The notes under the pieces were generated by a model, which worked only from the letters and a program-made list of their open reading frames with translations, had not been told where the DNA came from and searched no databases. This document shows, piece by piece, positions 31,874 through 35,869 of a stretch of 56,497 nt of DNA. Position numbers and translations under genes: made by a program. Source of the DNA: Candidatus Thorarchaeota archaeon (GTDB lineage Archaea; Asgardarchaeota; Thorarchaeia; Thorarchaeales; Thorarchaeaceae); assembly GCA_048882965.1 (NCBI GenBank), contig JBHLRC010000003.1:1-56497 (forward strand). Direction: 5' to 3'. The stretch's first letter is position 1. Each line of letters starts with the position of its first letter.

Positions 31874-32323
31874 GTGACAATCAGTACAGGAATATCCCAA
31901 CAATCGCAAAGCACGCTTGAGGTAAATGATACCATGACAATAGATGAGGGTACATACCTGGTTCTCCGGTCAGCTTCAGGTGCATTCAGCTGCCGCTATC
32001 CACCAGTACCCAAGAATTGGAATCCTGTTGACCGTCCTCATGTTGCTTTACTACTTCCAGATGCCGGGACTATCTTCTCTGTTTTCTTGTCACAGCCAGA
32101 GAATAGCGAGTCCAAAAGAGAACAATCGCTAGCAGTGTCAGATCTAAATCGACTTCCATCAAAGTCAATCATTGAGATTCGTCACAGCAATGCGCAGCTT
32201 GCTTACTATCGTCGTGATAATGGATCTTGGACAAAGGTTGCTGAGGCTAGTGATCCTTTTGTTGTCGAAGTATTCTCTCATGGGTATGCTCCTATCGTCA
32301 TGAATATGATTCCTCAGATGTAG
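31874..32323 (+). CDS. Hypothetical protein
   Basis: 149-aa ORF 22 nt after a TTATATAC TATA-like box; start may be later (ATG after GAGGT). Confidence 0.6.
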   Translation: MTISTGISQQSQSTLEVNDTMTIDEGTYLVLRSASGAFSCRYPPVPKNWNPVDRPHVALLLPDAGTIFSVFLSQPENSESKREQSLAVSDLNRLPSKSIIEIRHSNAQLAYYRRDNGSWTKVAEASDPFVVEVFSHGYAPIVMNMIPQM

Positions 32324-32364
32324 GATATTCTATTTTTCTATAATTTTAGTTTCTCTGAGAATGA

Positions 32365-32475
32365 GTTTGAAGGTGAAGAGAGGCACCAAAAAATTGAGGT
32401 TCGCATGGTTGCTTGAGGAGGAGAGGATGTTAAGATTTCAGGAGGGAGTTGGTGCCTCTCAACACTTCACTCTTG
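32365..32475 (-). ncRNA. Candidate sRNA A: 12-bp closing stem around a CU-rich loop
   Basis: GAGAGGCACCAA (32378-32389) / TTGGTGCCTCTC (32449-32460). The minus-strand loop has CUCCCUCCU and CCUCUCCUCCUC; a TATA-like TTATTATATG lies upstream on the minus strand. Confidence 0.5.
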
Positions 32476-32592
32476 TTTTTTCAATAAATACATATAATAA
32501 TTGTGGTAATAACTACAATCAAATCAACAATTATCTGCGAAAATCGCAAAATTATTGATTAATCTCAAGCTTAAGCTCATAATAGGAATAAC

Positions 32593-32949
32593 TTACACGT
32601 CCCAGTAGTCATTTCCATATTGACCACCATTGTGTCTGATTAGATCTTGAATATTCCTAAGTACTGTATCTTCACCAGCCGATTGAGATCCCCAGTTGAA
32701 ATTGCAGATGCCTTCACCACCCCCACTTCCAACCACTGTGACTGTTGCCTGTTCGAGGTCGCCTTCTGTCTCAACTATTGTGGTGAGTGTTTGATATGAA
32801 CTTGTTCGGAAGACATATTCTTCGTGAATGAAGACAGCAATAACTCCTTTTTCAGTTCTGCTAATTTTCCTCATTACAGCTGAATAGTTGTGAGAGAGAT
32901 ATTCCAGCACACGTTCTAGATGCATGATGTCGAAATTGAGTGTCTTCAA
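32593..32949 (-). CDS. Small alpha/beta protein (DUF6054-like)
   Basis: HEEYVFRTSSYQTLT...VVGSGGGEG...WGSQ pattern; GGAGG SD. Confidence 0.55.
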   Translation of the reverse strand: MKTLNFDIMHLERVLEYLSHNYSAVMRKISRTEKGVIAVFIHEEYVFRTSSYQTLTTIVETEGDLEQATVTVVGSGGGEGICNFNWGSQSAGEDTVLRNIQDLIRHNGGQYGNDYWDV

Positions 32950-32997
32950 TCACTGACCTCCGCAGGGGAGCTTTGCGCGAAGGATTATAGAATCTTC

Positions 32998-33327
32998 TCA
33001 TTTGAGATCTAGCAGTTCAACTTCGAAGATCAATGTTGAGTTTGCGGGGATGAGACCTTCTCCAACCTCCTCGTTTCCATAGGCAAGCTCTGGAGGAATG
33101 GTCAGTTTTCTCTTACCTCCGACTTTCATTGTCATGACGCCTTCATCCCACCCTTGAATTACATGACCGATACCAATCTGAAACTCAAAGGGCTCTTCTC
33201 TGTCCACCGAGCTGTCAAACTTTTTGCCATCTGTTAACCAACCCGTGTAATGGACAACAACAGTCTGTCCTTGTTTGGGGGACTCTCCTGTTCCTTCAAC
33301 AATATCTTCAATCTTTAATTCTGTCAT
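32998..33327 (-). CDS. FKBP-type peptidyl-prolyl cis-trans isomerase
   Basis: VHYTGWL, FDSS, VIQGWDEG, IPPELAYG, FEVELL. Confidence 0.97.
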   Translation of the reverse strand: MTELKIEDIVEGTGESPKQGQTVVVHYTGWLTDGKKFDSSVDREEPFEFQIGIGHVIQGWDEGVMTMKVGGKRKLTIPPELAYGNEEVGEGLIPANSTLIFEVELLDLK

Positions 33328-33625
33328 GACTAACCTCAACTGTCACTTTCTATTATCTGTTTTCAGGTTTCTTCAATGATCTCAAACTCAGGTTTCATTC
33401 CTGATTGTTTGGCTAGCTTTTATTCACGGATACTCCGAAGAATTCCATGAAACCTTCTAACGATAACAAAAGCAAATCCTCAAGGAAATCGCTCGCCGTC
33501 GAACACTGGTGTTCCTAAGATAAGTTGTTTATTTGGTGATTTACGCGTTAAGCACTTGAGAATTTGTAGTAAGAGTCTCCGCAATCCGACATTTGCTTAA
33601 ATATATTCTAAGCAATACTATTTTT

Positions 33626-33710
33626 GAGGAACAGGGAGCCTATCTCTCTCAGAAGCAGTTTCTCTCCTCCTTCCATGTTCTCTACGGCTCCCTACTCTCC
33701 CTCTTTCATT
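33626..33710 (+). ncRNA. Candidate sRNA B: starts AGGAACAGGG, 8-bp closing stem, CU-rich loop
   Basis: TTAAATATA about 25 nt upstream; AGGGAGCC (33633-33640) / GGCTCCCT (33686-33693); loop UCUCUCCUCCUUCC; pyrimidine tail. Confidence 0.45.
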
Positions 33711-33799
33711 CTAATTCTCTCAGACCATAGTGGAGCTGTACAAGATGAGCATATATCAGACCATACAATTCACTATTTGGCCATTCGGAGTCGAAGAGA

Positions 33800-34735
33800 A
33801 TGAATTCAGATAAGGAGTCTATGCGAACACACTCGATCCCCTGGAAATTCGTCATACCCATTCAAGTACTTGTCATTGCGACAATATTGGTTACAATAAT
33901 TTTCACGGAATTTGGAGCATTTCCCTTTGACTCCACACTGGGTGTATATCGGTTCCTTCCAGGGGATATTGTGTTTGATTTCATCTGGCTCTATGTTATC
34001 TCATTGATCGTTGGAATCATTGTTTATTTTGCTTCATCACAAGTTTCTGTTTTGCTATGGCGGCTCCACCAATTATTGACCCGCAAGAAATACAAATACC
34101 ATATACAAGAATTGGACACTCAACCACTTTCTTCTCCTCAACCTAGAAGAATGATTTTGCCTGCATTTGTCGCTCTTGGCATTTCCTATTCAGTATCCAA
34201 TGTTCAGATTCTGTCGGATATGATATTTGTTTCAGAGAGCTTCAGCGGACTTGCAAGTGAAGCTCAGACAATAGTAATTAGCATGGCTCTTCTCTTTATC
34301 CTGCTTCTACTCTCTAGCTTCATCACATTCTTGTTCGCGCCAATGTGGTTGATGCAAGACAAGGGTCTGGTTTGCGAGTTAGAGAAGACCGATCGAACAA
34401 CCGCAGATATTGAGGGGGTTGGTAATTGGTATCTAAAGTTGATGAAGGGATTTGCTGGAGTTTCAACAATCATTGCATACTTATTCACTAGCCTCCAGAC
34501 AATTGAATGGTATCAATTCGTGCTGTCTTCTCCTCCCGAAGGGGGATTTTCCATGTTGATATTCCTGATTCCAGTTGGGGTAGTCATTGCTTCTCCATTA
34601 CTTGCTCTAGGTCCCATTTCTCTCGTCTATGTTTTGTATGAAAAATCGATGGTGAGGAATTTAATTTTATTATCGAATCACATAGAAAAGAGTGGCTTAG
34701 ATACTGTAAGAATCAATTTGAGTACTATTATTTAA
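33800..34735 (+). CDS. Polytopic membrane protein of unknown function
   Basis: About six hydrophobic segments; long ORF. Confidence 0.8.
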   Translation: MNSDKESMRTHSIPWKFVIPIQVLVIATILVTIIFTEFGAFPFDSTLGVYRFLPGDIVFDFIWLYVISLIVGIIVYFASSQVSVLLWRLHQLLTRKKYKYHIQELDTQPLSSPQPRRMILPAFVALGISYSVSNVQILSDMIFVSESFSGLASEAQTIVISMALLFILLLLSSFITFLFAPMWLMQDKGLVCELEKTDRTTADIEGVGNWYLKLMKGFAGVSTIIAYLFTSLQTIEWYQFVLSSPPEGGFSMLIFLIPVGVVIASPLLALGPISLVYVLYEKSMVRNLILLSNHIEKSGLDTVRINLSTII

Positions 34736-34880
34736 ACAGAGGGGAAGGATGCCAACTGCAACTATGCTAAAGGAGTGATTTCCGTGTTCATTGGATGCAG
34801 TTTCAGCTATGTAGGTATGTTGCCTGACACGCACTAAGATATCAAGAATACTTATATGCTATTAATACATAATATGTCTT

Positions 34881-35006
34881 AGGAACAGGGGGTCCGAATC
34901 GCGACCATCATGAATACTGTCACTCCCTCCCTCTCTCAAAACGTCCGACCCGACTGGCGAACAACTCGCTTGTTTTTGCGGGCCCCCTCCCTCCTCCTCT
35001 TTTTCT
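34881..35006 (+). ncRNA. Candidate sRNA C: starts AGGAACAGGG, 10-bp closing stem, CU-rich loop
   Basis: CTTATATG about 25 nt upstream; AGGGGGTCCG (34887-34896) / CGGGCCCCCT (34979-34988, one G-U); loop CUCCCUCCCUCUCUC; ends CTCTTTTT. Confidence 0.5.
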
Positions 35007-35016
35007 CAGCCTTGTT

Positions 35017-35259
35017 TCAATGTCTGAGGGCATTCACAATGAAAAAGCCCCCGTAGAGAAATAATGGGGAAATTACCAAAGCAAGACCAATGAATAGTTT
35101 GGGCTGTCCTGGCATGGTTGGCAAGGCGAGTAGATACAACTGAAGGATGACTAGATAGATTATTGTCGCAAATATCATCACGATAAGTCCTAGTTCAAAC
35201 AGATTCGATCTCATGTTTTCTATTTCATCTCTGAGGTTATCTGATGTTTTATTATCCAT
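35017..35259 (-). CDS. Small two-TM membrane protein
   Basis: 80 aa with two hydrophobic helices; GGGTG SD. Confidence 0.7.
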   Translation of the reverse strand: MDNKTSDNLRDEIENMRSNLFELGLIVMIFATIIYLVILQLYLLALPTMPGQPKLFIGLALVISPLFLYGGFFIVNALRH

Positions 35260-35374
35260 TCTGGGTCACCCAAAAGAAGGCACAATTTTACGAACTTAAA
35301 AATCCTCTACAAATCAATTTGTGTTATACAACTTTTCTCCCGCCAGAAGGTTTTAATGGAGTTCACAAGGTGCC

Positions 35375-35869
35375 ATGGCAAGGCGAGTGAAATTGTCAGT
35401 GGCAAAGAAAGCTGTTGATAGTACATTTAGGAAGATTCTGAAGTATACTGCAGAGATAATTGCTTCTATCTTTCTACTTGTGATTATCTGTATCCCGCTA
35501 GTATTTGTAATCCCAATGTGGTTGGAGCACATCGTTTTAGGTATACCTAGAGCTGAGCTTGTCTTTGATCCTGTCCATCTGTTTGGTTTTGGTGGAGCTT
35601 TCTGGTTAACATTATTCCTCGGTTTGGTTAGTTTTGTTCTTGGATATTTATTCATCATCAGGATGAAAGCCGGTATCGTATCTGAAGTTGAACAGGAAGA
35701 TGAGGAAGAATCTGATGAAGAATATGAGGTAGCTGAAGAAGAGGAAGAAGAAGCAGAGCCCGAAGTTGAGGAAGAAGAAATAGACGAAATTGCCACTGAG
35801 GAAGAAGAGGAAGATGAGGAAGAAGAGGAAGAAGAATTGACTGATGATGAACTAGAGAACGAGGATTAG
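35375..35869 (+). CDS. Two-TM membrane protein with very acidic (E/D) C-terminal tail
   Basis: Last ~60 aa dominated by Glu/Asp. Confidence 0.8.
   Translation: MARRVKLSVAKKAVDSTFRKILKYTAEIIASIFLLVIICIPLVFVIPMWLEHIVLGIPRAELVFDPVHLFGFGGAFWLTLFLGLVSFVLGYLFIIRMKAGIVSEVEQEDEEESDEEYEVAEEEEEEAEPEVEEEEIDEIATEEEEEDEEEEEEELTDDELENED

Follow-up and report, generated by a model that had tools for sequence, protein, structure and literature searches.

Three short intergenic elements of a Candidatus Thorarchaeota archaeon, here called A, B and C, have the marks of a family of Asgard small RNA (sRNA) genes. They lie in a window of 56,497 nucleotides (nt), the whole stretch of DNA that was analysed, which is contig C3 (GenBank JBHLRC010000003.1) of a 3.5-Mb genome in 304 contigs that is 93.75% complete. 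Comparison with related genomes indicates that A (minus strand, 32365-32472), B (plus strand, 33626-33706) and C (plus strand, 34881-35004) are separately promoted non-coding RNA genes and not chance hairpins. That they form an uncatalogued Asgard sRNA family, as an earlier note on this DNA had proposed, is well supported by their own promoters, the covariation of their stems, the lack of an Rfam match and their position at one syntenic locus; we infer their transcription, RNA ends, targets and partners from sequence. The explanation that we place first, at a probability of roughly 45%, is that the three are paralogous, trans-acting sRNAs that would mask GGAGG-type sites in mRNAs.

The three elements stand where the earlier note had put them, their closing stems of 12, 8 and 10 bp were found again, and one plan underlies them all. 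The TATA-like boxes claimed upstream are present and conserved in congeners, each box starting 29 nt before the drawn 5' end. Alignments of A, B and C homologs have the same order, with an invariant TATA region, a variable spacer of about 22 nt, the 5' arm, the loop and the 3' arm, and conservation extends from the TATA region to the CU-rich tail and then ends. In the consensus folds a lone helix closes off one large loop of 45-80 nt, which contains 8-16% G and several CU tracts. Both these folds and those of the individual RNAs leave the CU words unpaired in the loop and tail, and such words are indeed present, along with pyrimidine tails, in all three elements. Just ahead of the 3' arm, A and C carry a run of four to seven U in several genera, with varying flanking bases. 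The paralogs also detect one another: a B model built on 21 congeners (R1) scores C at 21.3 bits, and a genus-level C model (R3) scores A at 24.9 and B at 21.9 bits. The suggestion that the RNAs might be circular found no sign in its favor, and on our reading of the fold the stems are not bulge-helix-bulge motifs.

It is conservation and covariation, not fold energies, that place these genes above chance. When positions 32330-35060 were compared by BLAST with 24 congeners, A, B and C proved to be the best-conserved parts, at 75-96% identity versus 68-76% for the coding DNA between and around them. The stem of B was followed through 53 homologs from nine genera, gathered with R1 and a second model built on 49 homologs (R2); 94.3% of the stem cells are paired and both sides have changed in 10/10 pairs. 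None of 500 shuffles equalled this covariation, and sliding the partners along gives 63-79% pairing. For A, 93.7% of stem cells are paired in the 16 congeners of the genus-level alignment, a count above all 500 shuffles, and double-sided changes occur in 4/10 pairs, a count matched by 30 of the 500. The stem of C is nearly constant within the genus (22 homologs), with 2/9 pairs changed, which 74/500 shuffles matched. Homologs of A in other genera have different stems around the same loop, and those of C have different stems that are still paired. The energy of the A fold stands apart from its shuffles (z = -3.59, 0/200 as good), that of B is marginal (z = -2.13, 2/200), and that of C is not significant by energy alone (z = -1.23, 21/200).

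The 5' end of A would lie near 32468-32472. Its 5' arm (32449-32460) pairs with the 3' arm (32378-32389) over 12 bp to close a 58-nt loop, and its TATA box together with the flanks, CACAATTATTATATG on the minus strand, occupies 32490-32500 (TATA 32490-32497) in columns that are invariant or nearly so among the 16 congeners. The loop core CUCUCCUCC, at 32417-32425, recurs in 9/16 congeneric A homologs, and a second CU word, CUCCCUCCUG, sits closer to the 5' arm. Directly before and into the 3' arm lies a U6 tract (32388-32393) reading AAUUUUUUGG, which is similar to an Sm site; a run of four to six U occupies the same place in A homologs of several genera. In two genomes, G011 (L031:3100-3400) and G069 (L061:280-560), A and its promoter are inverted relative to B and C, and a wholly different closing stem surrounds the unchanged loop.

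Gene B scores 91.4 bits with R1, and its CU-rich tail runs to about 33706. The 8-bp closing stem pairs 33633-33640 with 33686-33693, and an outer 3-bp helix uses the 5' AGG. Its promoter, CATTTGC followed by the TATA box TTAAATAT, spans 33590-33604 (TATA 33597-33604), with columns T3-T13 invariant in 21 congeners. The core CUCUCCUCC at 33662-33670, found in 44/53 B homologs, is flanked in the alignments by UCUCUCUC (33644-33651) and CAUGUUCUC (33674-33682); UCUCUC and CAUGUUCUC are invariant within the genus. Gene C, scored at 134.2 bits by R3, is closed by 10 bp between 34887-34896 and 34979-34988. Inside its loop are a CU block (34923-34937), an inner hairpin (34956-34970) and, ahead of the 3' arm, a U5 tract (34973-34977), the stretch between hairpin and 3' arm reading UGUUUUUG; a CU tail with a T5 end (35000-35004) follows. 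The promoter of C (34845-34859) has the TATA box TTATATGC at 34852-34859, and CTTATAT is invariant in 22 congeners. Within the genus, CCUCC occurs in 16/16 A, 14/21 B and 22/22 C homologs, and CUCUCCUCC in 6/22 C homologs.

The earlier note had also pointed to an identical start of B and C. Both do begin with AGGAACAGGG, but the word is not enriched in the genome (9 matches versus 8 for the reversed control), the remaining 7 sites are unlike B or C, and in most congeners B begins with AGGGCCAGGGGG and C with GGACAGGGGG. An AGGAAC start is found in both B and C (here 33627-33636 and 34881-34890) of G000 and G002; in G019 C starts with AGGAAC and B with AGGAAA, and other congeners have AGGGCC in B and GGAC in C. 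The 5' ends of two paralogs have changed in parallel.

No known RNA class accounts for the elements in the searches that we made. Rfam 15 gave no match at gathering score anywhere in the window, and relaxing the threshold to E values up to 10 for 32200-35300 gave four chance-level matches only (TCL6_1, SAM-III, sR2 and MEG8_3), three of them outside A, B and C. The fourth, TCL6_1, lies on the minus strand at 33669-33777 (20.3 bits) and overlaps B in its 3' part; this Rfam entry is a region of a vertebrate long non-coding RNA, and we rejected it. ARAGORN found no transfer RNA or transfer-messenger RNA gene in the window. A C/D box sRNA has a C box, RUGAUGA, near its 5' end and a D box, CUGA, near its 3' end; the two boxes were found in this order in 0/59 copies (21 B, 16 A and 22 C), and RUGAUGA occurs once among them. 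Literature searches on Asgard small or non-coding RNA, Thorarchaeota sRNA and archaeal CU-rich anti-Shine-Dalgarno (anti-SD) sRNAs returned no description of such a family.

The covariance-model search that the earlier note had proposed as a check was carried across 86 genomes and 16 genera of the family at E values up to 1e-5, and R2 found B in 61/86 genomes and 9/16 genera, nearly always as a single copy. R3 found C in 24/27 congeners and in few genomes beyond. In five genera missed by R2, divergent A-, B- or C-type genes stand upstream of the same 164-amino-acid (aa) gene in 5/5 cases; they have TATA boxes and the loop core UCUCUCCUCCUUC, and their stems are new. The syntenic order is a HAD hydrolase, a 129-aa gene, A on the minus strand, B and C on the plus strand, a 164-aa membrane protein and an Mrp/NUBPL ATPase. 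In G003 and G007 the three RNA genes lie side by side within about 750 bp, and in this genome and its close relatives genes for FKBP, a DUF6054 protein and a 311-aa protein are inserted among them; genus g25 yielded neither A nor the 129-aa gene at the locus. As far as we searched, the RNA family appears confined to one family of Thorarchaeota. Fourteen R2 matches outside that family, at 18-28 bits, were inspected and dismissed as spurious, having no TATA box and closing stem or lying inside longer repeats, and the 164-aa gene was not found in 5 genomes of other families, apart from one weak match. Separately, G152:C1, from another Asgard family, contains 13 or more copies of a repeat about 200 nt long (e.g. 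L105-L108), whose CU-rich part weakly matches the B model; it is unrelated to A, B and C and may be a miniature inverted-repeat transposable element (MITE).

Three other accounts of the locus were weighed against this record. The stretches might encode small proteins on either strand, such as purine-rich, SD-led open reading frames (ORFs) opposite the RNAs, an objection foreseen in the earlier note; GGAGG is frequent on the opposite strands, and a 65-aa ORF (32361-32558, plus strand) overlaps A. Indels in congeners are mostly of 1, 2, 4 or 5 nt, however, and few indel runs are divisible by three (2/15 in B, 6/57 in A and 3/85 in C). The longest closed ORFs within the elements have 0-40 aa, their lengths vary widely among homologs, and what is conserved is a stem and loop with paired changes. 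Neither strand appears to be coding, since no ORF on either is kept between homologs, and we regard this account as scarcely credible. Still less weight goes to the stems being terminal inverted repeats of MITE-like mobile elements, also raised beforehand, even though inverted repeats do bracket 45-80 nt. Neither blastn-short nor R1 found a further copy of A, B or C in the genome, so the elements do not seem to be mobile; they occur once per genome at one syntenic locus throughout the family, and their promoters are conserved. Weak extra R1 matches on contigs C15, C59, C116 and C28 have no TATA box and no stem, and we discarded them. Finally, the elements could be cis-acting parts of neighboring mRNAs, with B and C as leaders of the 311-aa and 164-aa genes, respectively, and A as the terminator hairpin of the upstream 129-aa gene. 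The 311-aa ORF does lie 95 nt downstream of B, C is on the strand of the 164-aa gene and 58-200 nt before it in most genomes, and A is situated between convergent genes, its hairpin being followed by a T6 run when read on the plus strand. Yet in many genomes C follows B with no gene between them, and the 311-aa, FKBP and DUF6054 genes were inserted in particular lineages only. C is unlikely to be the leader of the 164-aa gene because that gene has its own conserved TATA box about 25 nt before its ATG, and A has a conserved minus-strand TATA box and a strand-specific CU core common to B and C. We therefore consider a cis-acting role very unlikely.

As for what the RNAs do, our first choice, the masking of ribosome-binding sites in trans, would work as follows. 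From three paralogous genes, each with its own promoter, would come RNAs in which a purine-rich 5' end and a pyrimidine-rich 3' part together form the closing helix. The helix would hold open the G-poor, largely unstructured loop, and a single-stranded, CU-rich tail would follow. The loop would display CU tracts, commonly CUCUCCUCC, which could pair in trans with GGAGG-containing ribosome-binding regions of mRNAs and so hide these from the ribosome, probably with the help of an Sm-like protein bound at the U tract. A regulator on the palindrome TTGCGA-N3-TCGCAA between A and B would probably set the expression of these two genes. The use of GGAGG sites noted earlier is borne out, with a peak 12-16 nt before the ATG over 2363 ORFs of this genome, and the 16S rRNA of a relative ends in GGAUCACCUCCU. 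Because the genome uses such sites and the 16S tail has this form, the CU words would mimic the anti-SD sequence and could mask ribosome-binding sites; CUCUCCUCC and the 16S 3' end have CCUCCU in common. This genome also has three genes with an LSM domain, whose products would be possible partners.

Several observations weigh against this explanation. CUCUCCUCC is missing from 9/53 B homologs, and the B genes of G008, G016 and G024 contain no CCUCC, CCCUC or CUCCC word; what all copies have in common is a pyrimidine tract and no anti-SD word. The 16-nt B core has 7 non-self sites that are complementary with at most 2 mismatches, versus 12 for the reversed control, and a duplex scan of 3595 start regions did no better than a reversed-loop control. 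In that scan start regions outscored gene interiors by about 2 kcal/mol, and the reversed loop scored equally. Pairing between the core and a canonical GGAGGUGA site would extend over just 5 bases. Ahead of the 3' arm, A contains a T6 and C a T5 run, at which archaeal transcription could stop early. The 53-homolog alignment of B was, moreover, fitted to the model, which favors pairing; despite this, the raw B sequences differ strongly in their stems while the loop stays the same.

The best duplex match of B is to the gene of a secreted 1034-aa protein, with a 15-nt perfect complement. Among start regions with GGAGGAGA, 7/15 precede a signal-like hydrophobic N-terminus as compared with 615/3595 (17%) overall (Fisher p = 0.0075), in a post hoc test with crude ORF calls and starts chosen by SD score that is uncorrected for about 11 tests; that GGAGGAGA sites favor genes with signal or membrane N-termini is a weak lead. 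The 16S genes of two relatives contain no extended complement of the core. In one of the 16S loci, L133 (G065:C2:589938-592348), the match spans 2411 nt against a model of 1478 positions, which suggests a large insertion or intron, and the match at L132 (G042) is without the usual anti-SD tail at its end.

The chief competitor to masking holds that the RNAs are protein-bound scaffolds or sponges, in which helix, U tract and pyrimidine loop hold an Sm-like or pyrimidine-tract protein and serve to titrate or deliver it instead of pairing with mRNAs. Much of the architecture would suit such a role: a stem joining 5' and 3' ends, a large pyrimidine-rich loop, a U-rich 3' end and three clustered, separately promoted genes, as well as helix-flanked tracts of four to seven U that persist from genus to genus in A and C, in a genome with three LSM-domain genes. 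The loop is conserved over distances spanning the whole family, beyond what a seed for mRNA pairing typically needs, some B copies keep CU tracts and lose CCUCC, and no long targets are enriched. On the other side, Ro60, the TROVE-domain partner of true Y RNAs (PF05731), was found neither in this genome nor in any of the family genomes (0/86), with Deinococcus and Bacteroides controls positive, and the neighboring genes offer no candidate binding protein, the model of the 129-aa protein being unusable and the other neighbor being a membrane protein. On balance we find the scaffold or sponge role somewhat unlikely but a serious alternative. A more specific version is improbable: A, B and C could be the RNA cores of Sm-like-protein particles, counterparts in form to Sm-class or Y-type ribonucleoproteins (RNPs), and could act as decoys for the 16S 3' tail, shifting the balance between SD-led and leaderless translation. 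Sm-class sites are single-stranded, of the PuAU4-6GPu type (Pu, purine), and lie between helices, where an Sm-like ring binds them.

Upstream of the A promoter lies the palindrome CTGCGAAAATCGCAA (32535-32549, consensus TTGCGA-N3-TCGCAA), which is probably an operator, that is, a transcription-factor binding site, nearly unique to the A/B locus. It is found exactly and in the same place in 8 congeners (L022:6080, L024:4345, L026:800, L029:3532, L034:786, L040:907, L042:1405 and L043:2743), related forms occur in other genera, and a TCGCAAT half-site stands just ahead of the TATA box of B. Elsewhere in the genome it is not enriched (12 matches versus 3-10 for controls), and just one other site is intergenic, flanked by genes for a peptidase and an endonuclease.

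The 164-aa gene (35375-35869, plus strand) has its promoter, GTTTTAATGG, at 35350-35377, about 25 nt before the ATG, and alignment of the window with 45 related loci brings out a strongly conserved CCAGAAGGTTTTAATGG promoter. With the TATA box so close to the ATG, its mRNA is probably leaderless. Neither the 129-aa nor the 164-aa gene has a Pfam match above curated cut-offs, and both appear to be family-specific; in a protein atlas the 164-aa protein matches Thorarchaeota hypothetical proteins only, and no usable match was found there for the 129-aa protein, whose structure model has a mean-confidence score (pLDDT) of 45.5. Between C and the 164-aa gene, an 80-aa ORF (35017-35259, minus strand) has a tblastn counterpart only in G019 among 51 related loci and would seem to be a recent insertion or no gene.

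We found almost nothing in print on Asgard regulatory RNA. With clear promoters, a simple structure, a putative conserved operator and a definition at family rank, A, B and C offer an entry to gene control after transcription in the prokaryotes most closely related to eukaryotes, and their models can be used to annotate 60 or more genomes. If the RNAs do mask SD sites, a theme from bacteria and methanogens recurs among Asgard archaea, built on a new architecture; should they instead be parts of protein-bound particles, they would inform the question of how small RNPs arose.

The Y RNAs provide one point of reference for these elements, being RNAs of about 85-125 nt with a stem joining the 5' and 3' ends, a large pyrimidine-rich loop and a U-rich 3' end, encoded by clustered, separately promoted paralogs and bound by Ro60. 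A, B and C resemble them in closing stem, pyrimidine-rich loop, U-rich 3' end, length and the clustering of separately promoted paralogs, in form only, and the Rfam model Y_RNA gave no match at E values up to 10; the scaffold logic of A, B and C would likewise recall Y RNAs or CsrB-type sponges. In Methanosarcina mazei, sRNA41 and sRNA154 are reported to be intergenic RNAs with anti-ribosome-binding-site loops for which masking in trans is proposed; experiments support their targets, and they are known to respond to nitrogen (PMC5867862). A, B and C are like them as archaeal intergenic sRNAs that carry the anti-ribosome-binding-site sequence in loops, although their own targets are putative; there is no detectable sequence relation. 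The cuckoo RNAs of Alphaproteobacteria (RSs0680/CcsR, SmelC397 and relatives) are described as 2-4 adjacent small hairpins with CCUCCUCCC in each loop, and are suspected of masking ribosome-binding sites (PMC4615179). Their family is among the Rfam families without a match at E values up to 10. A, B and C differ in having one end-to-end helix around a single loop of 45-80 nt with several CU tracts, in using the words CUCUCCUCC or CUCCCUCC, not one per small hairpin, in place of CCUCCUCCC, and in having an archaeal TATA promoter for each gene. The two groups share an unpaired anti-SD-like CU word, clustered paralogs and variable stems around a conserved loop word.

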